Part shown: positions 10,031-41,773 of the stretch, piece after piece | How positions within the stretch are numbered: the stretch's first letter is position 1 | How the letters are laid out: every line of letters begins with the position of its first letter | DNA from: Parcubacteria group bacterium Gr01-1014_8 | Lineage (GTDB): Bacteria > Patescibacteriota > Minisyncoccia > Phycocordibacterales > UBA2100 | NCBI GenBank assembly: GCA_007376385.1 | Contig: VMGC01000002.1 | Coordinates: forward strand, 1 to 64,000 | DNA length: 64,000 nt | Direction: 5' to 3' | Program-made: the position numbers and the translations under genes | The notes under the pieces: model-generated | Told to the model about the DNA's origin: nothing | The model's input: only the letters and a program-made list of their open reading frames with translations | The model's database searches: none

Positions 10031-13000
10031 ATGCGAAACGCGCATGTCGCAGGTGTTTTGTTTGTAATTCTTGCAGCTACTATCTGCAGTGCTGCATTCA
10101 TAGCTCTCGGTTCATCATTTGTGCCTACTGCATCTGCACAAAGTGGACAGGGTAATTGCAAGACGCAATACGATGCGTGTATAAAGGCCGCGAATTCCGC
10201 TGCTGCGAAAGCACAGACCTCTGCGCAAGTACAACAGGCTGCGAAGGATAAAGCATCATGCATGCCGAAGTGGCGCACGTGCATGAACAAATGTAAGCAG
10301 CTTACGAAAGGTGCAGACGGTGCTTCGAGCTGTTCGACGGATAGTGAATGCAAAGGAAAACGCTGCAAGGATACCTATAACGATCTAACGAAAGAGAGAA
10401 AGTGTTGCGTAAATCTTTATGACCTCGGAAAAGAATCGCAAAATTCGTGCCCGAATGAAGTTACCTCTAGTGTAGGGCTGCGATGTTATGAAGATGCTGC
10501 GGCGCCTCATGACCCGACAAAAGGGGGAACGCCTGGGGGCACGCCATCTACGCCAGGCGGACAGCCGGAACAACCTTCGGGAGGAATGCCGCAAATTCCG
10601 CAACCGTCGCCGGGAGAAGGCTCACCGCCGAAAGAGCAACCCAAAGAAGAACCGACGCCAGAGCCGAAAAAGGAACCGACATTGTTTGAGAAATTCGCTC
10701 AGTATCTTGGAGGAGATACACCGAAGACAGATGATGCAAAATCACCGCTCGATTATTTCTTCAAGAAAGATGAGGTTGAGCTTGGTTCAACACCCGCTGA
10801 TACTTTAGGAAAGGATTTCCCCGATGCATCGGACAAATGGTGGAATGATGCTGTTGGGCAAAGCACATTCGGTGCGCCCGAAAATTCAGTAGTAACCACA
10901 GACCAGAGTAATTGGGAGCAATTCAAAGAACATATAGCAAATGGAGATATTGTCGCAGCGGGTGGAGATGTCATTGATGGCGCAAAAAATGTGCTTGGTC
11001 TAGGCGATGAAGTGGCTGCAGAGATTCCAGGCGATACAAAAACACTGACTGATGAAACTCCTGACGTGCCAAAAGAGGGACAACAATATGCTGAAGCAAA
11101 ACCCGGTGCCGCCCCGGAAAAACCGACGTCAGATTTAAGTAAAGAGGAGCAAAAGGCAATCACGGAAAAATCCCTGAAAGATACTGAAGCGAAGATCGCC
11201 GCTACCAACAAGGATCTTCAGAATCCCAATCTTGACGAAGCATCAAAAGAAGCACTTCGGGAAAATCTGAAGGACCTTCAATCGCAGCAAGCGGATCTTA
11301 AAAAGGAAATAAACGATCTCGCTAATCCTCCTGAGGCGATACGGAACAAAGCCATCATGGGTGAAGGTGCGCTAAGTGAACACCAACTGCCGTATGACGC
11401 CGAACCAGGGGGGAGAAAAGTATACGTTGAAACAGATGGACCGAACGGAAAGCATATCGTCGAAGTGGACTCGAAAACGGCGGGGACCGATGCCAATGGG
11501 AAGCCTACGACCCTGGGCGATATCGCCCAAGCAAATGGCGCCGGAAATTCGCCGACAAATCCGCTGCCGATGGATGCAGTGCGGTCAGCGGTGGGTGGAG
11601 ATGAAGGACTGAAGGCAATGACAACTCCTACTATAGAGAAGACAGGCGAGGCTCTTACATACAACCGGCCAGTCGGTCCTAATGATCAGGCAACTCTTGA
11701 TGTTAAAGTCGAAAAAAGTCCGGTCAGCAATTTATATGAAGTCAATCAAGATCCGCTGAAAGTCGCTTCGGAAGGGTATCAAGAGGGAGAGGGCAAAGTG
11801 GTGAACGAGGGCAAATTCCTTTTTGGTGAGGGAGCAAAACCACCACCCGCAGGGGAGCCACCTACAGCGGCGTCTCCGCCACCGCCTGCGGAATCTGAAA
11901 AAAGTGACGCATCAGTCGCACGCTCCCCGAATACGCCCGAAGAATATGCAAAAGCCGCCGAAGAAGCGATCAAGCGATCGATGGTAAATCTGGGGAATGG
12001 TTTTGCAAATGTCGTCGATGCCGCAAGAGAAGGAATTAGTAATGCTGCTGTTGAAGTTCAAAAATGGGCGCACGAGGCGAAACAAGCGGCAGCAGATGCA
12101 TACAATTATGTTGCCGGCACAATAGAAGATATACGTCCCGCAGGAAATCCTACAGACGTACAAGCGCCCTCCCCCGGGCCGGTGGCGCAGCAGCCGAGTC
12201 CATCGCCGGGCGATAATCCAGGCGGAGGCACTGTTGTACCTGATACACAAGGAACCATTCCTATAAAAGCGCCCACTGGTCCCGGAGATCAAAATCCTCC
12301 GGTTAAGTCTGGGGACGGATCGACTGATGGAGGAAAAACGGAACCAACGATTACTCCCACGGATAAACCTGGCAAAGACATAGACGCGCCTGTTCCTGAT
12401 CCGCAAGGGAAAACAAAACAACCGACAACGCCGAGTCCGGAAGGAAAGGAGCAGACGGTACCACAGCCTGCGCCGCCAAGCTCTCCTCCAAATCGGGGTT
12501 GGTTTAAAAGAATCGCCGATGCGCTCCGTGGTTTTCCGATTCCCGGTCCCTCACCTTCGCCGACAAATATCTCACCGTCCGTATTTCAACCGCAGCCACA
12601 AGGTCAAGATCAAAAGCAGGCCCCGCAGCCAACGCCTTCAGAAAAGAAAGGTCAACCGGAACCGGATCCGAAAGGGACCGCAAAAAGTAATTTTGCTCCG
12701 AAAACAAAAAATAACCTCCAGGAGTTTTTGGCAGATGCGCTCAAAAAATTCGCAGATGGAATTGCGAAGCGAACAGGTCAAGATCCTGGAGAAACTCCAG
12801 GAGGACAAGGTCCGAGCAAGACCGCGAAAGATAACGATCCGAATAAACCCCTTGGGAACAGCTTGGAGAATCCGAAGCAAGTGAAAGATGGAATTCCTGC
12901 GAAGAGCAATACCGGCGAAGCTGGAACCGGCAAAGGTCAGGAGGGAAAGCAGCAACAGCAGAAGGGAGCAAAAGACCAGGAAGGGCAGAAAAAAGGAGAC

Positions 13001-16000
13001 GATGGGAAGCAGGGAGTGCCATCTGGCACGCCAAGCAATACACCTGCGCCCCCTGACTTACCGCGACCGAATATGGTCGCGAAATTACAGGTACCGACTC
13101 CTGTAGCTTCGAATGACCCAAAGGGAAAAACCATCGAGGCTCAAAGCAAAGAGAATGTCCAAACACAGCCTGGCGATAGCGGGCAAGGGCAGGGACAGCC
13201 CAAAGGTGGAGGCAAATCTCTGCTTGAGAAACCGAGTTCTGAAAAAGTCGAAAACGCAACGCCGAGCCCGAGTCCTACCAGAGGTTTCCTTGCGAAGCTT
13301 CCAAATCCGCTTGTATCAATTCCAGGAAAAATAGTAGGCGTGAGTGCGCCTGACGGCGATGCAGTGCCAAGTCCGGCAGGCGATGTGATGCGAACGTCGG
13401 ATGGGCGGCTCAAAACACCGAGTATTTCTGGACGTTCATTGGAAGGACAGCCTGTCAAAGCCGTTGGAGATGCGAAGAAACTACTGCCGACTCTCATCTC
13501 GACGAGAGCTGAAGATGTGCGAGATTTTGTGAGAGGAAGCGGGGTCAGAACTCGGTTCGGTATCAAAGATTGTGCGGCAGCCCCTACTGGCTGGGTTTGT
13601 CAGAACTTAGGAGACATAGCGCAAAGGCAAGGATGTTCGCCTGGGGACCATTCGTGTTGGCAATCTGACGTTGCTGATGCGGAGGCATATTGGGCAAAGC
13701 TTCTCATGCAGCCAAATTACACGCGATGTCAGCCACTGACCGTGCAATGCATTATTAGCGGTCCTGATGGGAGAGGCAATTGGGTCGCCGATGATTCTGC
13801 ATGGAGACGTGCGCAAGGATTAGGCGGTACAGGCTCTAACGCTGACCATGTTGGCAGAGTCATCAGATTCATGGCCGAGAAAGGAGTAAATGTCCAGGGG
13901 AACACGCCTCTCGATCTGAATGATGCGAATGTGAGAAGGGCGTTGGCTTACGGTCAATCAAGAGCCGAACTTAGGGCAGGCGAGAGCGCATATGACGATA
14001 GCGTGATTGATACGGGTTATGAACGCGCTGTTGCGCGCGCTGGCGGAGCACCCCCGCCGCCAATTGTGCCGTCCACACCACCTGCGGCGATTCCGGTGCA
14101 ATCAACGCACGCGCAAGCTTTGCAAAAATATCAAGATGCATTGGCCTGCAAGGGCAATGAGTGTAGACAGCAGAAGATAGATGTTCGAAATCCCCAAGGT
14201 GTGTCGCCAGAGCTGGCGGAGCAAATAAAGCAGCGACATAGCACCGCTCCACAAAAACCTGGGTATGGTACGGAAGTGAACAAGGCGACTGTCATAGCCG
14301 ACCTTGCTGCGTGCGAGGCGATGGGGGGCGGCTGTGGCAGATTATCTTCGTCGGCCCGTTCGCCAGGACAGACGAGGCATGGTCCGGGAGATGCGATTGA
14401 CGTCACGTTCACCGACCCACAAACGCAAGGCACATATGCAGCGCTTTTCATGAACGGCGCCCATGCACTCGGGGCAACTCCTGGCATGGGTTTCAATACA
14501 GAATGCAGCACGGGTTGCATCGTACATGCAGACACGGTAGGCGCGAGTGCCGGACCTGGGGCAGCGAACGCGTGGGCCTATGGTCCTAACTGCGGAAGCG
14601 GAAGCAGCGACTGCATAAAAAATATAGTCGACCCACGGGTTCGTTCAATTGCGAATCTCGCGTATGCGGGGCAGCCGGTTCCTAATAACCTTGTTCCAGA
14701 ATCTATTACACCAGGGACTACGGTTCCAGGGGGGACACCCGCGAGTCAGGTTGTCCGTGGCCCACATGTTCCCGGTTCCGAGCCGGGCATTGTTCCGGGA
14801 AAGGAAGAAGCCAGCAGGTCGCCGGAGGAACAAAAGAAATTAGACGACGATGCGGCACGTGAAAAGCCAAGCCCCTCGGCCACAAAGTCTCCGCCTGGTC
14901 TCACTGGTGACGTTGCAAAAGACGCTGTAAATAAATTCTCACACGATCTTGGGCAAAGGGGATTTGTCTTTGGAAAGGACAGTAAGCTCCTCACGCCACA
15001 GGAAGCAGCAGAGCTATTCAAGAAAGGAGAAAAGCCGGATATCTATCTACCTCGCGACAAAGGTCCGAATCCATTTGCGAGCCCGGAGCAAAAAGCACAA
15101 TTTACGAAAGCTCCAAACGGGCAACATTATGAAAAATTCGAAGGGACTTTTGATGAGTATCGTCAGCGTCTGACGCAAGAATTAACAGCAGCCATTGAAA
15201 ATGCGATGCGTGACCAGCAGCTCAATTCGAAACCGGAGACGGAGAAACTTCGGGATGGAGGAAAACTTGTAACGAAGGGTGAGGGCCAGATACGCAATGT
15301 GTTTCGAGAAAAAGACGGAAAACTAAGTGACAAGCCTGTCGGTCAGGTGCGCGAGATAAGCAAAGAATTTGCGCAACTTCGAAAGGCAGTAGAACTGCAA
15401 GGCGACAAAGTGAAAGTGAAAGAAAAAAATGGACAGTTCAAAACAGAAGATGGAAGACGCGTCGAATTGCGTCCTGATACCGGCAAGGATGCGCCGCCGC
15501 CGTGCACTGATTTTACAAAATGTCATACGGGCGGAAAGATAGAGAATGGAAGATTTGTCGGAGCAGATGGTTCTAACATCGTGAATATACCGGGTGTTGG
15601 ACGCGTAAGATTTGAGCACAATCCATTCAGCCCGAATGCAGGAACGCAACGCGGAAATATGAGTGCGCTCGTCATCCATGAATTCAGAAACCCAGGCGGC
15701 GCAAGGAATGTTGATAGTACGGTGAGATGCCATCAGAACGGTTGCCGAGGAGGAGGCGTATATACGCAAGCGTATGTAAGCCAGCCCTATATTGCAGAGG
15801 ATGGAATGAAGGAAATACGCGTAGTTCAGCTCGGTTCGGCGTACGAGCGCAGTGGCCACGCGGGCTCGACACCGCTTGGCAGCCAGCCGGGACCCGGAAT
15901 AGAGAATGCGTGTCACGGAAGAGGAGATTGCAGTGATCCTCTGCAGATTGCGGCGAACGCTATTATGTATGACGCCTATCGTCAGCAATATCCGAATATG

Positions 16001-17200
16001 GCCGTGACGCATCACCAAGGGGATGAAGGTTTGCCTATTGCGCGTGCACTGTACGCACGCGTACAGGGCGGTTTGCAGGGTTCACTATCAGATGAGCCAG
16101 TCGCACTTTTCGCAGTATCGGAAAATGGAGATGCCGAGAAACTGGGCACCAGCATGAAGCCATCTGAACTTCCAGCGGCCGGCGGTACCGAATTCGAAAG
16201 TGTAGGGGACAATGGAAACCCAAATGGAGATGTCCGTATCGAACTTGATCCCATCAAGATAGGCACAGCAGACGTTCAGCCGACAATAGAAGGCGACAAA
16301 CTCGGTTTTGTCCCGACCTATACGCCGCCACCTCCTCCGCCCGCTCCACCGCCTCCTCCATCTTTTAGACAGAGAATGGCAGAAGCAGCGCGACGCCAAT
16401 TGGACAATTTGTCGAACGCGATGAAAAAAATGATGCAGCCGCCTAGCGGGGGCGGTGGAGGACAGCCGCAACCTCAACCGCAGCCACCTGTGCCACCTCC
16501 GCCTCCAATTCCACCAACATCGACAACGGGCGAGCCGAAAATAACCTGTACACCGACCGCTGCGATCGCGGATCAAAAAGTGAGAATTAAATGGTCGTGC
16601 CCTCCAACCCAGCTAGCAGTCGGCGTCGGCTTCGAGACCAAAGGTTTGGCGAATAGCGAAGTAGAAGTGCGCGTATCGAATGATAAGACACTATCGGAAG
16701 CGAAATATTCACTTCGCTGCGGAACGCTTCCGGAGCGTTCATGCACGGTGAAGATAGTCCGCCCGGCTATACTTATGATCGCCCAGCCTGGCGAAGTAGG
16801 ATCTGGGAAGACAACGAATCTAGCATGGGCGGCGACTCAAGTCCGAGTCTGCAAGATATACGACCCCGCATGCAAGGTTGTAGGTTCCGGTAATTCGGGT
16901 GGCAGAATAAAAACGAAAGCTCTGACTCGTTCAAGTACTTTCATGCTCGGCTGTGAGACAATTACAGGCGCAATGACCACGTCATCTGTTGTCGTAAAAG
17001 TGAAAGGAGATACGAAGGAACCACTTCCTGCGTGTCCGGCGGAAAGCATCCAACATGATGTTGTATTTACGACGAGCAGCTTGAACACTAAAAGTACTCC
17101 AACAGCCTACCCAGTACCATCTTCCAGCGGGTCCACAGAGCTGTGCAGTCCAAATCTTGATTTCGATTCTTTTATCAGATGTGTGATGGGTAAGAAGTAA
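10031..17200 (+). CDS. giant (2389 aa) secreted Cys-rich/Pro-rich surface protein (paralog family A) with two C-terminal beta-sandwich-like repeats
   Basis: It has a signal peptide. The N-terminal Cys-rich module is homologous to that of the 7198 gene. It contains long low-complexity P/G/Q/K-rich regions. A mid-region motif SPGQTRHGPGDAIDV resembles the HxxGxAxD zinc motif of peptidase M15/LAS enzymes (low confidence). The C-terminal domains show the VxxGxxxxxxW..C pattern. Confidence 0.85.
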   Translation: MRNAHVAGVLFVILAATICSAAFIALGSSFVPTASAQSGQGNCKTQYDACIKAANSAAAKAQTSAQVQQAAKDKASCMPKWRTCMNKCKQLTKGADGASSCSTDSECKGKRCKDTYNDLTKERKCCVNLYDLGKESQNSCPNEVTSSVGLRCYEDAAAPHDPTKGGTPGGTPSTPGGQPEQPSGGMPQIPQPSPGEGSPPKEQPKEEPTPEPKKEPTLFEKFAQYLGGDTPKTDDAKSPLDYFFKKDEVELGSTPADTLGKDFPDASDKWWNDAVGQSTFGAPENSVVTTDQSNWEQFKEHIANGDIVAAGGDVIDGAKNVLGLGDEVAAEIPGDTKTLTDETPDVPKEGQQYAEAKPGAAPEKPTSDLSKEEQKAITEKSLKDTEAKIAATNKDLQNPNLDEASKEALRENLKDLQSQQADLKKEINDLANPPEAIRNKAIMGEGALSEHQLPYDAEPGGRKVYVETDGPNGKHIVEVDSKTAGTDANGKPTTLGDIAQANGAGNSPTNPLPMDAVRSAVGGDEGLKAMTTPTIEKTGEALTYNRPVGPNDQATLDVKVEKSPVSNLYEVNQDPLKVASEGYQEGEGKVVNEGKFLFGEGAKPPPAGEPPTAASPPPPAESEKSDASVARSPNTPEEYAKAAEEAIKRSMVNLGNGFANVVDAAREGISNAAVEVQKWAHEAKQAAADAYNYVAGTIEDIRPAGNPTDVQAPSPGPVAQQPSPSPGDNPGGGTVVPDTQGTIPIKAPTGPGDQNPPVKSGDGSTDGGKTEPTITPTDKPGKDIDAPVPDPQGKTKQPTTPSPEGKEQTVPQPAPPSSPPNRGWFKRIADALRGFPIPGPSPSPTNISPSVFQPQPQGQDQKQAPQPTPSEKKGQPEPDPKGTAKSNFAPKTKNNLQEFLADALKKFADGIAKRTGQDPGETPGGQGPSKTAKDNDPNKPLGNSLENPKQVKDGIPAKSNTGEAGTGKGQEGKQQQQKGAKDQEGQKKGDDGKQGVPSGTPSNTPAPPDLPRPNMVAKLQVPTPVASNDPKGKTIEAQSKENVQTQPGDSGQGQGQPKGGGKSLLEKPSSEKVENATPSPSPTRGFLAKLPNPLVSIPGKIVGVSAPDGDAVPSPAGDVMRTSDGRLKTPSISGRSLEGQPVKAVGDAKKLLPTLISTRAEDVRDFVRGSGVRTRFGIKDCAAAPTGWVCQNLGDIAQRQGCSPGDHSCWQSDVADAEAYWAKLLMQPNYTRCQPLTVQCIISGPDGRGNWVADDSAWRRAQGLGGTGSNADHVGRVIRFMAEKGVNVQGNTPLDLNDANVRRALAYGQSRAELRAGESAYDDSVIDTGYERAVARAGGAPPPPIVPSTPPAAIPVQSTHAQALQKYQDALACKGNECRQQKIDVRNPQGVSPELAEQIKQRHSTAPQKPGYGTEVNKATVIADLAACEAMGGGCGRLSSSARSPGQTRHGPGDAIDVTFTDPQTQGTYAALFMNGAHALGATPGMGFNTECSTGCIVHADTVGASAGPGAANAWAYGPNCGSGSSDCIKNIVDPRVRSIANLAYAGQPVPNNLVPESITPGTTVPGGTPASQVVRGPHVPGSEPGIVPGKEEASRSPEEQKKLDDDAAREKPSPSATKSPPGLTGDVAKDAVNKFSHDLGQRGFVFGKDSKLLTPQEAAELFKKGEKPDIYLPRDKGPNPFASPEQKAQFTKAPNGQHYEKFEGTFDEYRQRLTQELTAAIENAMRDQQLNSKPETEKLRDGGKLVTKGEGQIRNVFREKDGKLSDKPVGQVREISKEFAQLRKAVELQGDKVKVKEKNGQFKTEDGRRVELRPDTGKDAPPPCTDFTKCHTGGKIENGRFVGADGSNIVNIPGVGRVRFEHNPFSPNAGTQRGNMSALVIHEFRNPGGARNVDSTVRCHQNGCRGGGVYTQAYVSQPYIAEDGMKEIRVVQLGSAYERSGHAGSTPLGSQPGPGIENACHGRGDCSDPLQIAANAIMYDAYRQQYPNMAVTHHQGDEGLPIARALYARVQGGLQGSLSDEPVALFAVSENGDAEKLGTSMKPSELPAAGGTEFESVGDNGNPNGDVRIELDPIKIGTADVQPTIEGDKLGFVPTYTPPPPPPAPPPPPSFRQRMAEAARRQLDNLSNAMKKMMQPPSGGGGGQPQPQPQPPVPPPPPIPPTSTTGEPKITCTPTAAIADQKVRIKWSCPPTQLAVGVGFETKGLANSEVEVRVSNDKTLSEAKYSLRCGTLPERSCTVKIVRPAILMIAQPGEVGSGKTTNLAWAATQVRVCKIYDPACKVVGSGNSGGRIKTKALTRSSTFMLGCETITGAMTTSSVVVKVKGDTKEPLPACPAESIQHDVVFTTSSLNTKSTPTAYPVPSSSGSTELCSPNLDFDSFIRCVMGKK

Positions 17201-18334: not shown

Positions 18335-18694
18335 ATGCAAACGTACAAAGATTTAATTGTTTGGCAACGGGGTGTCCAACTCGTGACTTCGGTGTACCAG
18401 TTGACAGAGAAATTACCCAAATCGGAAATATTTGGATTGACAAGCCAAATGCGACGATCAGCAGTTTCAATTCCCGCAAATATTGCCGAGGGGTATGCGC
18501 GCAAACATCGTGCGGAATATATCCAGTTCTTGAGAATTGCATATGGTTCGGGAGCGGAACTCGAGACACTCATGATAATCATTCAAAATTTAAGATATGC
18601 AAAAGGATCTGATATCAGAGAAGTCTCGGATTTACTAGATGAGACGATGCGCATGTTAAACAAGTTTATTTCATCGCTTACTCAAAAAACTTAA
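18335..18694 (+). CDS. four-helix-bundle protein (TIGR02436 / 23S rRNA intervening-sequence protein family)
   Basis: 119-aa ORF showing the family hallmarks (KDLIVWQ..., SIPANIAEGY.R....FL.IA.GS..E). Confidence 0.8.
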   Translation: MQTYKDLIVWQRGVQLVTSVYQLTEKLPKSEIFGLTSQMRRSAVSIPANIAEGYARKHRAEYIQFLRIAYGSGAELETLMIIIQNLRYAKGSDIREVSDLLDETMRMLNKFISSLTQKT

Positions 18695-18738: not shown

Positions 18739-19637
18739 GTCTGTACACCCAAAAAGGAGCGAATATACGGCGGACGTGGCTTCTCATGACCGCGTTCTTT
18801 CTCCTCGTAATCGCGATTGGCTACGTCATGGCGTGGTATCTGGATAATCCAGGCATCCTCTACATCGCCGTCGCATTCAGCATCATGATGAACATCACAG
18901 CATATTGGTTCTCGGATAAGATAGCGTTATCTTCTACGGGCGCGAAAGAAGCAGACCCGACTCAATATCTGGAATTGCATCGTGCTGTCGAGAATCTTGC
19001 TATCACCGCAGGGCTTCCAAAGCCGCGTGTGTACGTCATTGACGACCCTGCGCCAAATGCGTTTGCTGCAGGAAGGAATCCTAAGCATGCGGTTGTTGCG
19101 GTTACTACCGGACTCCTCGCGCGCTTGGAAAAAACAGAATTGGAAGGCGTATTGGCGCACGAACTTTCGCACATTGGGAACAGGGACATTCTCGTAATGA
19201 CAGTAGCCGTCGTCCTCGCGGGATTTGTATCTGTCCTTGCGGATCTCTTCTTGAGATTCAGTTTTTTCAGCGGGGGAAACAGCAACAGTAGAGAGGGGAA
19301 AAATCCCGTGATGCTTATCATGGGTATCGTGGCGATAATTTTGGCACCGATTGCGGCACAATTGATACAGCTTGCGATATCGAGGAAGCGGGAATTTTTG
19401 GCGGACGCCTCCGGCGCGCTCCTCACGCGCTATCCAGACGCGCTAGCCTCAGCACTCAAGAAAATATCTTCGTACCAGGCGCCGATGCGAAGAGCAACAC
19501 ATGCAACTGCGCACCTTTTTATCTCGAATCCATTTGGTGCAGATGGAAGAGGAAAATTCATAGCAAAAATGTTCATGACGCATCCTCCTGTAGAGGAACG
19601 TATTGCCGCACTCGTTGAGATGCGGAATGTGCAATAG
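18732..19637 (+). CDS. htpX: HtpX-like M48 zinc metalloprotease
   Basis: 301-aa ORF with TM segments and an HELSH (HExxH) motif. Confidence 0.9.
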   Translation: MASLYTQKGANIRRTWLLMTAFFLLVIAIGYVMAWYLDNPGILYIAVAFSIMMNITAYWFSDKIALSSTGAKEADPTQYLELHRAVENLAITAGLPKPRVYVIDDPAPNAFAAGRNPKHAVVAVTTGLLARLEKTELEGVLAHELSHIGNRDILVMTVAVVLAGFVSVLADLFLRFSFFSGGNSNSREGKNPVMLIMGIVAIILAPIAAQLIQLAISRKREFLADASGALLTRYPDALASALKKISSYQAPMRRATHATAHLFISNPFGADGRGKFIAKMFMTHPPVEERIAALVEMRNVQ

Positions 19638-19640
19638 CAC

Positions 19641-20189
19641 ATGCACCGTTCTCCATACGGTTTCGTTCGAACCGACATCTGGAGAGAGGGGGATTATCTG
19701 GACTTGTGGAGCGTGCCGCATGTCCTCTCCGGCATCGCGGTCGCGCTCGGGTTGTATGTTTTGAACTTCAGAACGATATCGGCGTTCATCATTGCGTTCC
19801 TTGTGTTCGTGATGTATGAGATGTTCGAGGTGATCGCAAAGATAGAGGAGACGAGAATGAACCGCACACTCGACATAGTAGTGGGAATGGCAAGTTTTGC
19901 GCCGGCATTTTTATTCTCGTCTTATTTTACGTACTACGAACTTGTTCTCGCGTTCGCCGGAATAACTATTGCGGACGGCGTTCTAAGTTTCTTCGGATGG
20001 CGTGAGTCACAAAAAGCAGCGGTGTGGGAAGCAAAGATGCACCATGAATTTATTGAGCAAAGGGCCAAGATGAAGGAGCGCCGGGAGAAACTTAAAGGCC
20101 GATTTCGAAAGGATCGCTATCGAATGAAAAAAGTTGTTCAACGGATAGAGCAAGGCATAGAGCAAGCAGAGTCGAACTTTTCGAAGTGA
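19641..20189 (+). CDS. hypothetical membrane protein
   Basis: 182-aa ORF with 4 predicted TM helices and a basic C-terminal tail. Confidence 0.6.
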   Translation: MHRSPYGFVRTDIWREGDYLDLWSVPHVLSGIAVALGLYVLNFRTISAFIIAFLVFVMYEMFEVIAKIEETRMNRTLDIVVGMASFAPAFLFSSYFTYYELVLAFAGITIADGVLSFFGWRESQKAAVWEAKMHHEFIEQRAKMKERREKLKGRFRKDRYRMKKVVQRIEQGIEQAESNFSK

Positions 20190-20217
20190 GTGCTGGTATT
20201 AGTTATATTTAGAGCCA

Positions 20218-20239
20218 ATATACCGATATATCGGTATAT
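20218..20239 (+). promoter_or_regulatory. perfect 22-bp palindrome ATATACCGATATATCGGTATAT, 3' of the TrpR-like gene
   Basis: Self-complementary. A second copy of the 20-bp core is at 20682..20701. Confidence 0.55.
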
Positions 20240-20251
20240 GCTAGATGAGAG

Positions 20252-20671
20252 TCATCTAGAGCGACGCGATCTAAGCTCCCGAATTCTTTTAGCGTGACGC
20301 GGTCCGGCTATTGATGGCATACCCGCAGAAAGAAATATCTCCAGCGTTTCAAGAAACGAAATATCCGATCTCTTGCCTGTTATCGCATTGCGAATGGGAT
20401 CAAACATGCCTGCCAATAATCTACGATGTAAGCGTTTGATGGTTGAAGTACTTACTTTGAGGGTTTTTTCAATCCGATAGTAGGAGAAATCCTTTTCAAG
20501 CATCACGATGATCGCAAAACGCTTTGCCAGCATGACCTTTTCTGTCGAGGTAAGGAGAGACTGGAGCAACGGCTTGCCTCTATCTGCAGACGTAAAAAAA
20601 GCATTCATCAAGTTGTTGTTAATGCGGTTCTCAATCTTTCTATTCATTGTGTATTTTGATACATGAGTCAT
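20252..20671 (-). CDS. TrpR/YerC-YecD-like HTH DNA-binding protein
   Basis: 139-aa ORF. The helix-turn-helix region (TEKVMLAKRFAIIVMLEKDFSYYRIEKTLKVSTSTIKR) resembles the Trp repressor/YerC family. Confidence 0.55.
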   Translation of the reverse strand: MTHVSKYTMNRKIENRINNNLMNAFFTSADRGKPLLQSLLTSTEKVMLAKRFAIIVMLEKDFSYYRIEKTLKVSTSTIKRLHRRLLAGMFDPIRNAITGKRSDISFLETLEIFLSAGMPSIAGPRHAKRIRELRSRRSR

Positions 20672-20681
20672 ATGTTGCTAT

Positions 20682-20701
20682 TATACCGATATATCGGTAT
20701 A
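20682..20701 (+). promoter_or_regulatory. second copy of the perfect palindrome TATACCGATATATCGGTATA, 11 bp upstream of the TrpR-like gene start (candidate auto-operator)
   Basis: Identical 20-mer core to 20219..20238. Confidence 0.55.
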
Positions 20702-20752
20702 TAGTACTAGTGTCTTTTGAAAAACATTGCTCTGTGACTATACTGCCGTTTT

Positions 20753-20838
20753 GGAGGGTTCGCATAGTGGTCTAGTGCACCACGTTGGAAACGTGGCGTG
20801 GGGAAACCCACCGAGAGTTCGAATCTCTCACCCTCCGA
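20753..20838 (+). tRNA. tRNA-Ser (anticodon GGA)
   Basis: Cloverleaf with a long variable arm. The anticodon loop is TTGGAAA and the T-arm is GAGTTCGAATCTC. CCA is not encoded. Confidence 0.8.
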
Positions 20839-20888
20839 AATTGAGCGAACCGACGACCTCTTATCCTCCGCAACAGGTATAATTAGGC

Positions 20889-21722
20889 GTGATGGCCTTT
20901 CGCTATTTTTCTAAGAACGGAAAGCTGCTTGGGGTGGGAGAGGCGAATATACCGCTCTCAAATATCGAGTACTCATATGGCTTTGGAGTGTACGAGACGA
21001 TCCGCGTTGCGAACAAGACACCGTACTTTCTTGTGGACCATATCGAGCGCTTGGGCGAATCGGCGCGAATGATCGGACTTGAGCATCCATTTGGGGGCGA
21101 AGAAGTAGAGAAATATGTAACGGAACTCATCAAAAAAAATGAGGTCGAAACCGCGAACCTGAAAATGTTACTCATCGGTGCATCTAAGGCAGAAGATGCG
21201 CAGCTGTTCATCATCTGTTTAAATCCGTTGTTTCCTGATAAAAAACTATACCGAGATGGTGCGACATTCATCACATATGAATACGAGCGCGCATTTCCGC
21301 ACGCGAAAACACTCAACATGTTGCAAAGCTATCTTGCCTACAAAAAAGCGAAAGAAGCCGGAGCGTATGATGCACTTCTTGTTAACAGAAATGGCAGCCT
21401 CATCGAGGGAACTCGCACGAATTTTTTCTGCATTCAAGACAAAAACATTTTTACGCCGCGCGAAGAAGAAATATTGCTCGGTGTCACAAGAAAAGCGATG
21501 CTGAAAGTGGCGCTGGATAACGGATACACAGTGCAGGAAGGCGATATATCGTGGGGGGAGATACAAAACAGTGACGGCGCGTTCATCACCAGCACGTCAT
21601 CGAAAATAATTCCCGTGAGATCTATCGACGATACAGAGCTCAAAAGTATTCCTGACTCATTGCGAGACCTCATGCGTATCTTCGATGAATTTTTGGGCGG
21701 ATGCGCTGGAAAAATGGAATGA
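20889..21722 (+). CDS. class IV aminotransferase (branched-chain / D-amino-acid aminotransferase or ADC lyase family)
   Basis: 277-aa ORF with the conserved EGTRTNFF motif and a fold-type IV pattern. Confidence 0.8.
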   Translation: MMAFRYFSKNGKLLGVGEANIPLSNIEYSYGFGVYETIRVANKTPYFLVDHIERLGESARMIGLEHPFGGEEVEKYVTELIKKNEVETANLKMLLIGASKAEDAQLFIICLNPLFPDKKLYRDGATFITYEYERAFPHAKTLNMLQSYLAYKKAKEAGAYDALLVNRNGSLIEGTRTNFFCIQDKNIFTPREEEILLGVTRKAMLKVALDNGYTVQEGDISWGEIQNSDGAFITSTSSKIIPVRSIDDTELKSIPDSLRDLMRIFDEFLGGCAGKME

Positions 21723-29603: not shown

Positions 29604-31340
29604 GTGACGTCGGTCCAGAATAATTCCGCTATGATAGGAACGCTTAGAAGAGGACTCTCAATCACAGGCCGCGCGTTTGAGTTCCTTTCGCGTGAGGTTC
29701 GAGGGATGCATGCTGCAGCGTACATTCTCGGTTTTTCATCTCTTCTGTCGTCGCTGCTTGCACTTCTAAGAGACCGACTTCTTGCGCACACGTTCGGCGC
29801 GGGAATAGAACTCGACCTCTATTATGCAGCGTTCCGCATTCCTGACCTTTTGTTTGTCGCCATCGGCGCGCTCGTGTCCGCGTATGTGCTTATTCCGGTC
29901 CTCGCAACGCGAGACGAGACGGGTCAGCACCGATATATTGACGCCGTCGTCGTCGGATTTTCGATACTTGCTATAAGTGCAAGCGCACTGGCTGCGCTTG
30001 CAGCGCCCTGGCTTCTCGGTTGGTTCTTTCCATCGCTCGCGGCCGGCGCGACGTTTCCGACACTCATACTGCTCACCCGGATCTTATTGCTTCAGCCGAT
30101 ATTTCTAGGTTTCTCGAATATTCTTGCTGCAGTAACGCAGTCACGGCATCGATACGCACTCTATGCGGCCGCGCCCATCGTGTATAACGTCGGCATCATC
30201 TTGGGCATAATTCTTCTATATCCATTTTTTGGTCTCGCTGGTGTCGCGTGGGGTGTCGTCTTAGGCGCGCTCTTGCATGCGCTCATCCAAGTTCCATCCG
30301 TGATCCGCGATGGTTTTTTACGAGTTGAACCCCTCCGAGCGGAGCTGTGGGTCATTTTCGATACCGTTCGAATTTCTTTTCCGCGGGCGCTCGCACTTTC
30401 GATGAATCAGCTTGCTTTCCTAGGTTTGCTCATTATAGCGAGTTCTCTTACAACTGGTTCCATTTCTATTTTTATGTTTGCCTTCAACTTGCAGGCCGTC
30501 CCTCTCGCGATAATTGGCGCATCATACTCTGTCGCGGCGTTTCCGACGCTGGCAACGCTCTCTCGCAACGGTTCGGATGAATTCATGTCCTATGTTGCGA
30601 CAGCTGCACGGCACGTGTTGTTCTGGTCAATGCCGGTCCTGATGCTCATCATTGTCCTTAGGGCGCACGTCGTTCGCGTTGTCTTGGGGTCGGGGGAGTT
30701 CAACTGGATCGACACAAGGCTGACCGCTGCGGCACTCGCTCTATTCGCGATATCTCTTGCGGCACAGGGAATTATGCTGCTTCTTGTTCGCGCATATTAT
30801 GCTTCAGGCAAAACACTGGTCCCGCTCGTGGTTTCGGGGGCGAGCGCTCTCGCTGCTATCCTTCTCGGTCTTTTATTCCTTGGGGCATTTGATGACCCGA
30901 GTGCTCTTACATTCATTGAAGCATTGCTTCGGGTTGAATTCATACGAGGGACAGAGATCCTTGCGCTTCCGCTTGCGTATTCAATGGCATCACTGCTTGG
31001 GATAGTCATACTTGCCATTCACTTTGAGTTTTCCAACAGGGGTTTTTTTGTGTCTGTCGGTCGAGCGTTCGGTGAGAGTATTACTGCAGCGTTCGTGGGC
31101 GCAGTTGCGGCATATGGGACACTTGTTGTTCTCGGTACAGTAACATTTTCCTCGACACTCGCATCGGTCTTGATGCGGGGAGGGGTTGCCGGCCTTGTAG
31201 GCTTGCTCGCAACTGCGATCGCGTACGCGCTTCTCGGAAGCCGCGAATTTTCAGAAACAGTGCAATCGCTTTCCCGTCGAGTCTGGCGCAATGTTGAACC
31301 AGTATCATCTGCTGAAGCGACAGATGTATCGAGAGCGTAA
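29604..31340 (+). CDS. murJ: lipid II flippase MurJ (MviN)
   Basis: 578-aa polytopic membrane protein. LLALLRDRLLAHTFGAGIELDLYYAAFRIPDLLF matches the MurJ N-terminal signature. The true start may be a downstream Met. Confidence 0.85.
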   Translation: MTSVQNNSAMIGTLRRGLSITGRAFEFLSREVRGMHAAAYILGFSSLLSSLLALLRDRLLAHTFGAGIELDLYYAAFRIPDLLFVAIGALVSAYVLIPVLATRDETGQHRYIDAVVVGFSILAISASALAALAAPWLLGWFFPSLAAGATFPTLILLTRILLLQPIFLGFSNILAAVTQSRHRYALYAAAPIVYNVGIILGIILLYPFFGLAGVAWGVVLGALLHALIQVPSVIRDGFLRVEPLRAELWVIFDTVRISFPRALALSMNQLAFLGLLIIASSLTTGSISIFMFAFNLQAVPLAIIGASYSVAAFPTLATLSRNGSDEFMSYVATAARHVLFWSMPVLMLIIVLRAHVVRVVLGSGEFNWIDTRLTAAALALFAISLAAQGIMLLLVRAYYASGKTLVPLVVSGASALAAILLGLLFLGAFDDPSALTFIEALLRVEFIRGTEILALPLAYSMASLLGIVILAIHFEFSNRGFFVSVGRAFGESITAAFVGAVAAYGTLVVLGTVTFSSTLASVLMRGGVAGLVGLLATAIAYALLGSREFSETVQSLSRRVWRNVEPVSSAEATDVSRA

Positions 31341-40690: not shown

Positions 40691-41773
40691 TCACGTGAAC
40701 GATGACGTACCCTCTGCAAGTTTGAGGTTGCCTTGGGCGCGCAGTTGTTCAGGGTTTGAGAATTCTCTTTTTAATGCGCGGAAATAGCCGGCAAGGGCGA
40801 TCATGAGCGCATTATCAGTTGCAAGTTCCACAGGAGGAAGGACAAGTGTTACGCCAATGTCCGCACAAGCCTTAGCTAGTCGTGAGCGGATCTCTGTATT
40901 TGCGGAAACTCCGCCTCCAACAACGAGTGTTCGCGCTCCACATTCCTCGATTGCGCGCGAGGTTTTGTCTACGAGAACATCTGTCACCGCATCTTCAAAT
41001 TCTTGCGCGACCAGTTTTTTAAATTCTTCGGTCACCGATCCCTTTCCTTCAACAATCCTTCGGACGGCCGTTTTCAAACCCGCGAATGAAAAATCAAAAT
41101 TCTTTTTATGCAGCATCGGCCTCGGCAAAATGACCGACATACGATGTCGGTCAGTTTGCCGTGCTTCTTCGGCAAGGCGAGAAATGTGCGGACCGCCAGG
41201 ATAGGGAAGTCCAAGCATACGCGCTACTTTATCGAATGCTTCGCCGACAGCGTCATCTCGTGTTCGGCCGATGTATTCATACTCCATCCATTTCCGGGAC
41301 AGAATTAGATCGGTATGCCCTCCAGAAATAAGGAGGGAGAGCATCGGGAATTGGATTTGTCTGCCTCCATTCTCGGCGAGGGCGGAAATGATGATGTGTC
41401 CCTCCATGTGATTCACCGGTACGATGGGAACATTCCATTTTTTTGCCCACTCCTGTGCAAAAGTGATACCGGTCCACAAACATGGCTCAAGTCCTGGTCC
41501 CATGGTGACGGCAATAGCGTCGATATTAGTCCTTCCTTTTTGCTTTTTCTCTGCTTCGTTCAAGACTTCAGTAAGGAGGAGTGGAAGATTCTTTGCATGC
41601 TCGCTTTTGGCAACATTTGGATAGATGCCGCCGTATTTTGCGTGAAGCTCTGATTGTGTTGTAACGAGGTTCGCGAGCACTTCAAATTTAAAATAACCGC
41701 CAAACGAACCATGTGCGTCAATGAGCGCGATTCCCGTGTCGTCTGCTGATGTTTCGATACCTAGTATTCTCAT
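40691..41773 (-). CDS. tsaD: tRNA N6-threonylcarbamoyladenosine synthase TsaD (Kae1/Gcp)
   Basis: MRILGIETSADDTGIAL..., HMEGHI and GGVSAN motifs. The start was set at MRILG. Confidence 0.85.
   Translation of the reverse strand: MRILGIETSADDTGIALIDAHGSFGGYFKFEVLANLVTTQSELHAKYGGIYPNVAKSEHAKNLPLLLTEVLNEAEKKQKGRTNIDAIAVTMGPGLEPCLWTGITFAQEWAKKWNVPIVPVNHMEGHIIISALAENGGRQIQFPMLSLLISGGHTDLILSRKWMEYEYIGRTRDDAVGEAFDKVARMLGLPYPGGPHISRLAEEARQTDRHRMSVILPRPMLHKKNFDFSFAGLKTAVRRIVEGKGSVTEEFKKLVAQEFEDAVTDVLVDKTSRAIEECGARTLVVGGGVSANTEIRSRLAKACADIGVTLVLPPVELATDNALMIALAGYFRALKREFSNPEQLRAQGNLKLAEGTSSFT

Follow-up and report, generated by a model that had tools for sequence, protein, structure and literature searches.

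A 64,000-nucleotide stretch of DNA (64 kb, hereafter the window) from Parcubacteria group bacterium Gr01-1014_8, an uncultured groundwater bacterium under whose name the exact protein is on record, contains a gene for a TrpR-family helix-turn-helix (HTH) protein that is bracketed by two copies of one perfect palindrome. The bracketing of this gene by paired palindromes is a family-wide arrangement, and the sequence of the palindrome covaries with the recognition helix of the encoded protein. The protein probably binds these sites as its own operators and so represses its own gene, and the downstream copy would act as an auxiliary operator, most likely by way of a DNA loop. Three features of the window are central to this proposal:

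20252 to 20671, minus strand: gene for a TrpR-family HTH protein of 139 amino acids (open reading frame, ORF; Pfam PF01371).
20682 to 20701, no strand: upstream, promoter-proximal putative operator, perfect 20-bp palindrome TATACCGATATATCGGTATA, centred 20 nt 5′ of the ATG.
20218 to 20239, no strand: downstream, auxiliary putative operator, perfect 22-bp palindrome ATATACCGATATATCGGTATAT, 463 bp centre-to-centre from the upstream copy.

The sequence TATACCGATATATCGGTATA has just two matches in the window with up to three mismatches allowed, at 20219-20238 and 20682-20701, and none in 100 shuffles of the window. At the left copy the perfect palindrome extends to 22 bp, and at the right copy it has 20 bp; no other perfect palindrome of at least 20 bp exists in the window, against a chance expectation of 0.06. 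Direct reading of the sequence and a pattern search thus bear out an earlier note on this DNA, according to which identical perfect palindromes, unique in the window, lie on both sides of the gene. The bracketing described there stands, with corrected distances: the left palindrome is separated from the TGA stop codon (20254-20252) by 12 nt (20240-20251), not 13, and the right palindrome from the ATG (20671-20669) by 10 nt (20672-20681), not 11. Two further candidate copies, a bare core CGATATATCG at 21542 and a core with one mismatch at 29931, were rejected, as both have asymmetric flanks and are at chance level. A separate 16-bp palindrome, TGGGCGATATCGCCCA (11514-11529), resembles the family core minus one AT step and is within chance expectation.

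Loci for comparison were obtained through the exact protein (L001-L007) and from metagenomes (80 loci at 31-63% identity), and bracketing was measured as the longest identical stretch between the 100 nt 5′ of the ATG and the 120 nt 3′ of the stop codon. At least 12 nt were common to both flanks in 55 of the 63 distinct loci with enough flanking sequence, and at least 16 nt in 47 of them, whereas the maximum was 11 in shuffled and 9 in displaced controls. In nearly all loci a palindrome lies directly 5′ of the ATG and the same one directly 3′ of the stop codon, and perfect palindromes of at least 16 bp within ±3 kb are almost exclusively these flanking copies. The centre of the upstream copy is found 9-33 nt 5′ of the ATG in most homologous loci, and that of the downstream copy 5-40 nt past the stop codon in most loci, irrespective of the orientation of the neighbouring genes (downstream, 36 convergent and 19 co-directional; upstream, 29 co-directional and 23 divergent). 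Many loci hold three to four copies, one or two per side and 41-60 bp apart, and the centre-to-centre spacing across the family is 419-548 bp.

The core CGATATATCG is widespread, yet the palindrome sequence varies among lineages. Among the half-sites are TATACCGATA (the type of the window), TAGGGCGATA, TAGTGCGATA, TATAGCGATA, TAGTTCGATA, xTACGATA and TATGATA, and further types are CGATG/CATCG, CGATT/AATCG, CTGGAGTT/AACTCCAG and ACAGC/GCTGT. Both copies of one locus carry one type, and each copy remains symmetric, with a shared symmetric core of about 9-10 bp on each side of the centre. Mismatches up to 9 bp from the centre are rare and show neither an excess of G.T nor a strand bias, which argues for a constraint on the symmetry of double-stranded DNA over about 18-20 bp, the size expected of a TrpR-family operator. 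The palindrome types go with particular HTH sequences: K[VMI]STSTIKR with TATACCGATA, NVS[GIV]ST..R with the GCGATA types, KVSPSTVAR with TACGATA, KVT.QT..R with TGATA and ..SSSTVAR with CGATG. Among about 120 variable columns, residue 75 has the highest shuffle-corrected mutual information with half-site positions 5-9 and residue 65 the second highest, and half-site position 5 is best predicted by residue 76. By alignment with HisR (3G1C), residues 75 and 76 correspond to Ile79 and Ala80 of TrpR, and residue 65 adjoins the equivalent of Arg69; these TrpR residues contact DNA (PMC9413887).

The encoded protein matches Pfam PF01371 (Trp_repressor) over residues 31-85 with 41.6 bits against a cut-off of 27 (E 1.3e-10). 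This domain is also present in 43 of 43 homologues, and the family comprises 1224 clusters at 50% identity with E≤1e-10. The label “TrpR/YerC-like” given in the earlier note therefore holds at the level of the family and fails at that of the YerC/YecD equivalog, for which NCBIfam TIGR02531 gives 24.3 bits, below its cut-off of 42.2; the cut-off of the NCBIfam TrpR model is also unmet. The ATG start is secure because the N-terminus MTHVSK is kept in 27 homologues. The HTH spans approximately residues 63-86, with the recognition helix beginning at T75, and is followed by a C-terminal extension, conserved among homologues, that adds about 50 residues relative to TrpR and HisR. An AF2 model of the monomer, built with 28 homologues, is all-helical (8 helices) with a mean pLDDT of 71.7 and values of 84-93 over residues 51-90. 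Its top Foldseek matches in the PDB are 3FRW, 3KOR and 3G1C (probability 0.98-0.99), followed by E. coli TrpR (0.87-0.99 over these matches, with weak E-values). A sequence profile likewise places 3KOR, 3G1C and 3FRW as the closest solved relatives (E 4e-8 to 6e-7), with TrpR itself at E ~0.2. Structure prediction, which the earlier note had named as a check, is thus consistent with a DNA-binding TrpR-like HTH. R51 is invariant and T41 and R80 are nearly so; they align with Arg54, Thr44 and Arg84 of TrpR, which are ligand contacts there, and so give a lead only to a possible amino-acid corepressor.

The upstream palindrome overlaps promoter-like hexamers, and these are listed here together with the gene on its far side:

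20680 to 20685, minus strand: candidate -10 hexamer TATAAT, formed by the last 4 nt of the palindrome and 2 further nt, 8 nt 5′ of the ATG.
20701 to 20706, minus strand: TACTAT, a possible alternative -10-like hexamer where the palindrome has its 5′ edge.
20752 to 20838, plus strand: divergent tRNA-Ser(GGA) gene, the conserved upstream neighbour.

A two-hexamer promoter scan did not pick up TATAAT (20685-20680), whose distance of 8 nt from the ATG would imply a leaderless or nearly leaderless mRNA. In the 7 loci of the window type the palindrome is the sole invariant block between tRNA-Ser and the ATG, and a hexamer TATA[ACT][TA] is present at its 3′ edge in all 7. The alternative, TACTAT, lies about 2 nt nearer the centre of the palindrome than the extended -10 (TGnTAnnAT) of relatives with the GGGCG and GTGCG types. 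In the upstream sequences of 66 loci, the palindromes of these two types extend into the ATG and have TGnTAnnAT at their 5′ edge, which would place the transcription start near the palindrome centre. Overlap of -10-like hexamers with the upstream copy is found in all clades, and the ATG is often overlapped as well. Under either placement of the -10 element, a bound dimer would occlude the core promoter. On the plus strand, a good promoter-like match, TTGATA-17-TATTAT with an upstream TG (20656-20684), begins within the first codons of the repressor gene; its -10 reaches into the upstream palindrome at the left edge, and it is directed at tRNA-Ser. It could be a second, divergent promoter under control of the operator, or a chance match.

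In the mechanism that we favour, each recognition helix of a homodimer would read one half-site (TATACCGATA). The upstream operator would overlap the -10 region and the transcription start of the gene's own, probably leaderless, promoter, and since it would cover this promoter, the bound protein would shut off its own transcription. The downstream copy, which lies in the first non-coding DNA past the stop codon, would be an auxiliary operator for the same protein and would most likely raise occupancy of the promoter operator by looping out about 460 bp of DNA. It may, in addition, be an obstacle to RNA polymerase coming from the convergent HtpX operon. The earlier note had suggested an autoregulatory operator pair acting by looping. 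Conservation of the flanks, covariation, overlap with the promoter and the known 20-bp operators of the TrpR family all favour the operator pair, while looping, like binding, repression, the dimeric or tetrameric state of the protein and a small-molecule corepressor, is what we infer from the sequence. Across the family, the spacing of the two copies shows weak phasing at 10.5 bp, near whole turns (R 0.29, nominal p ~0.02, mean phase 0.93). Looping is compatible with this phasing and not established by it, and a roadblock or insulator is equally compatible with the sequence.

Copies of the palindrome away from the gene bear on this proposal and on its rivals. Related genomes were scanned for the 18-mer ATACCGATATATCGGTAT, in a collection of one genome per species from which the source genome is absent; the scan covers the palindrome type of the window. 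Contrary to the concern raised in the earlier note, the palindrome is not abundant: with no extra copy in the 64 kb, there are 1 to 4 extra exact 18-mers in each of the three related genomes that have any. Four extra copies lie between convergent genes and have extended arms, and four lie inside ORFs (recJ, tsaD, dus-like and beta-lactamase-like), all in the frame that reads YTDISVY. The intragenic sites are:

L100, 3368 to 3385: exact 18-mer in recJ of a related genome.
L102, 3665 to 3682: exact 18-mer in a dus-like gene of a related genome.
L096, 6835 to 6852: exact 18-mer in a beta-lactamase-like gene of a related genome.
L099, 6473 to 6490; L122, 2585 to 2602; L123, 10305 to 10322; L124, 10238 to 10257: palindromes in tsaD, at the start of an insertion of about 33 amino acids.

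The copy in recJ replaces residues and is not an insertion (GYTDISVYLPHR versus GYEHFQNYIPHR in an orthologue), and the site therefore arose by substitutions or short-patch conversion. In TsaD, “DIS” (GAT ATA TCG) occurs at one alignment position in 23 of the 120 best orthologues. The DNA of three such orthologues reads AGGGCGATATATCGCCCT, ATAGCGATATATCGCTAT and a hybrid, ATAGCGATATATCGCACTAT, with flanking codons that fit different palindrome types. In Kaiserbacteria MFLP01 the tsaD site and the sites of the regulator gene are of one type; in a second genome, where the two genes were linked through adjacent protein accessions, the tsaD and regulator sites share the 12-bp core GCGATATATCGC and differ at positions 7-8. 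The conserved tsaD site has the look of a second target of the regulator family, this one within a gene. The tsaD gene of the window (40715-41773, minus strand) has neither the insertion of about 33 amino acids nor the site.

Some palindromes are found near tRNA genes. In genome REEB49 one lies 71 bp upstream of tRNA-Ser(GGA), with HtpX downstream and no TrpR-like gene between (L094:507-682), and one of three more copies in this genome lies 87 bp upstream of tRNA-Ile(TAT) (L105:3129-3309). At another locus (L047, 587-726) the downstream palindrome lies 33 bp upstream of tRNA-Lys. This proximity may be a link or a coincidence. No coherent regulon emerged from the genes beside the extra copies. 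As judged from N-terminal sequences only, many neighbouring genes seemed to have to do with aminoacyl-tRNA synthetases or tRNAs, a resemblance on which we base no claim.

The 18-mer also occurs outside this group. In Firmicutes it is found in the spacer of TTGACA/TATAAT promoters (L108:655-672, L112:150-167, L115:2092-2109), in one case (L115) directly upstream of an XRE-like gene, and in Coprococcus (L093:409-426) the symmetry of a copy extends into its flanks; these copies probably serve unrelated regulators as operators and share the sequence by chance. Two contigs of one metagenome-assembled genome of Ktedonobacteraceae end a few bases past the palindrome and have the same 20-nt left flank (L091:5954-5971 and L104:3198-3215), which may mark where a repeated element ends or may come from a fold-back in the assembly.

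Several points weigh against autoregulation through a looped operator pair. The phasing signal for looping is uncorrected for relatedness or for the periods tried, and looping is not, to our knowledge, a known property of the TrpR family. Phylogeny confounds the mutual information, and other columns reach 1.3-1.6 bits; since relatedness inflates the statistic, the covariation of palindrome type and helix is best taken as supporting evidence rather than proof. The strong diversification of specificity is odd for a housekeeping regulator, and if the protein mainly regulates itself, its useful output is puzzling. The extra copies in related genomes are in ORFs or between convergent genes, not at promoters. 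Finally, perfect palindromes of 26-48 bp are common among the copies, and their outer arms, though self-complementary, are unlike between the two copies of one locus (e.g., at 34-48 bp, L059:655-692 and 1148-1181, L049:3411-3458, L015:3421-3460 and L044:778-817; also L047). Part of these long arms is a recurrent outer motif, AAACC...GGTTT. Sequence-specific binding of a dimer leaves such unmatched arms unexplained; they suggest a hairpin or cruciform property, for which there may be selection, or a mutation process that extends palindromes.

The strongest rival, although a distinctly less probable one, gives the downstream copy a different role, that of a protein-bound roadblock or insulator, perhaps aided by a hairpin in the RNA, against read-in from neighbouring genes (here the convergent LemA-HtpX operon). 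Expression of the gene would then depend on its own promoter alone. Such a role would agree with the tight placement of the copies at both ends of the ORF whatever the orientation of the neighbours, with the lack of an intrinsic T-tract terminator at 19400-21200, and with the four extra copies with extended arms between convergent genes; the intragenic copies in tsaD, recJ and the dus-like gene would fit repression by roadblock. The sequence alone cannot separate this role from looping, and the short spacers of small genomes would in any case put an auxiliary site beside the stop codon. Moreover, the circuit would not be homeostatic, as scarcity of the protein would lift the block on antisense transcription and lower expression further.

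It is also conceivable, if rather doubtful, that the gene and its palindromes form a self-bracketing module of protein and palindrome specific to Patescibacteria, with at least 15 “private” codes, which could serve as a programmable roadblock to transcription or insulator, or as a structural mark on the DNA. The tendency of the palindromes to grow into long perfect sequences capable of forming hairpins or cruciforms would suit such a module, as would the few other targets in or at the 3′ ends of housekeeping genes (tsaD) and beside tRNA genes. This would be a kind of regulation undescribed for the TrpR family.

Alternatively, the palindromes might work as hairpins of the mRNA, one in each untranslated region (5′ and 3′), affecting translation start, stability or termination, without being ligands of the protein. 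Each copy folds as a 9-bp hairpin, and the downstream copy adjoins a further structure:

20241 to 20259, no strand: second inverted repeat, CTAGATGA-gag-TCATCTAG, which overlaps the stop codon of the repressor gene and adjoins the downstream palindrome.

In either transcript this repeat and the palindrome fold into a pair of neighbouring hairpins (fold z-scores -2.95 and -3.68). The perfect palindromes of 26-48 bp in some relatives, with outer arms specific to each copy, and the presence of an ATG within some upstream palindromes could be read in the same way. However, hairpins at the two ends of a transcript have no reason to share a sequence or to track a recognition helix, and the mismatches show neither tolerance of the G.U type nor strand bias. 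As -10-like hexamers overlap the upstream palindrome, the 5′ end of the transcript would contain no more than its 3′ arm. Copies are present in coding regions as well, and tRNA is the only Rfam match, all of which makes this explanation improbable.

The earlier note had offered, as its other suggestion, that the palindromes are the two ends of a tiny mobile cassette, in which case solo palindromes would be relics of a selfish element, as in REP/RAYT systems. Identical repeats do bracket the gene tightly in every genomic context, solo copies exist in related genomes, including the REEB49 palindrome beside tRNA-Ser where the gene is absent, and the protein has weak matches to transposase-type HTH models. 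The surroundings of the gene speak against mobility. The order tRNA-Ser / gene / HtpX-LemA-GroEL is retained across relatives of 53-62% identity, tRNA-Ser being upstream in 19 related loci, and another clade has a different but likewise conserved order, RecJ / gene / RNase HI-like ORF (the last assigned from N-terminal sequence only), so that synteny is kept over deep divergence and the location is not variable. Among the loci fetched there was no second copy of the gene and no cassette in opposite orientation. A domain of a transposase or recombinase, be it of the HUH/Y1, DDE, serine or tyrosine kind, is absent from the 139-residue protein, as is any other catalytic domain, and its matches of this kind are to HTH models only; it has no PHROG or PADLOC family match, and a search of viral contigs found no relatives. 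With the very low copy number and the origin of the recJ site by replacement of residues, the cassette is a very unlikely explanation, and this suggestion lacks support.

Equally little favours chromosome-organisation sites of the parS or matS kind bound by a dedicated small protein: related genomes do have a few exact copies of 18-22 bp, several in ORFs and made by substitution, and the site at one tsaD codon position is retained across lineages, but no ParA- or SMC-type partner adjoins the gene in the window or in related loci, Pfam finds no ParB domain in the protein, there is no GC-skew switch at the locus and no further copy in 64 kb, the site diversifies where parS is conserved across bacteria, and the site overlaps the promoter of its own gene, as a repressor would need.

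The wider neighbourhood in the window can be summarised briefly. A promoter-like site for tRNA-Ser is present at 20717-20744, 16 bp beyond the upstream palindrome. Downstream and convergent to the gene are a small membrane-protein ORF, HtpX (Peptidase_M48), a 23S-rRNA-IVP-type protein and LemA; a class IV aminotransferase is also among the neighbours, and there are no histidine genes near the gene. The third of these convergent genes (18335-18694, plus strand) encodes a four-helix-bundle protein of the 23S-rRNA-intervening-sequence type (PF05635) between lemA and htpX, and the related loci examined lack it there. An ORF of 2389 amino acids (10031-17200, plus strand), rich in low-complexity Pro/Gly/Lys stretches and with an N-terminal hydrophobic segment, lies upstream of the cluster of LemA and HtpX; the 16-bp palindrome at 11514-11529 is inside it.

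Almost nothing is known of gene regulation in Patescibacteria (candidate phyla radiation, CPR), which cannot be grown alone. For dozens of members of the present, large family, comparison alone predicts what the operator sequence is, where it lies and which amino acids read it, and these predicted operators can be tested with purified protein and oligonucleotides, without culture. The matched series of helices and operators offers a case study of the co-evolution of transcription factors and their sites, and is a possible source of mutually orthogonal repressor-operator pairs. An operator at both ends of a gene is unusual, and raises the question of looping or insulation in very compact genomes. 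A literature search on the core sequence returned, among titles and abstracts, none concerning bacterial regulation, and we found no paper that links CPR bacteria with TrpR-like regulators or their operators. As a TrpR-family repressor the protein is of a known kind. The searchable literature does not describe the bracketing throughout the family, the operator code that differs by lineage or the targets inside genes.

The closest described system is that of HisR. YerC of B. subtilis has been identified as HisR, a TrpR-family protein that represses in dependence on histidine. The operators of TrpR and HisR are palindromes of 20 bp, an autoregulatory site precedes about half of hisR genes, and the HisR operator consensus is cacTTTA-N6-TAAAgtg (PMC9413887). 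HisR/YerC proteins include the closest solved relatives of the window protein by profile and have in common with it an “ST-x-TI-x-R” recognition helix and, if the palindromes described here are its operators, 20-bp palindromic operators and, often, a site before the regulator's own gene. They differ in length (less than 105 amino acids, against 139 with a conserved C-terminal extension) and in operator sequence (the consensus above, against the putative operator TATACCGATATATCGGTATA with its core CGATATATCG and no histidine genes nearby), and an operator 3′ of the stop codon is undescribed for HisR. E. coli TrpR has the same Pfam family and fold and a palindrome of about 20 bp over the promoter of its own gene, and the operator-tracking positions 75, 76 and 65 match or adjoin its residues Ile79, Ala80 and Arg69. 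However, trpR has one operator, with a motif common to several operons, whereas two to four sites with a lineage-variable motif surround the gene described here.

REP/RAYT systems resemble the present arrangement in that copies of a palindrome flank a small gene on both sides and are found elsewhere too, often between convergent genes. They differ from it by their HUH/Y1 transposase domain, by hundreds of copies rather than 1-4 extra ones, and in that synteny is conserved here. Auxiliary operators combined with DNA looping are well known from LacI O1-O2 (401 bp), GalR OE-OI, DeoR and lambda CI OL-OR. As in these systems, a promoter-proximal operator, here a putative one, is accompanied by an identical or similar one hundreds of base pairs away, and the spacing here tends to whole turns. 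Those repressors come from other protein families, in which the domains for tetramerisation or octamerisation are known; here, unlike there, the auxiliary site brackets the repressor's own coding sequence, and does so throughout the family.

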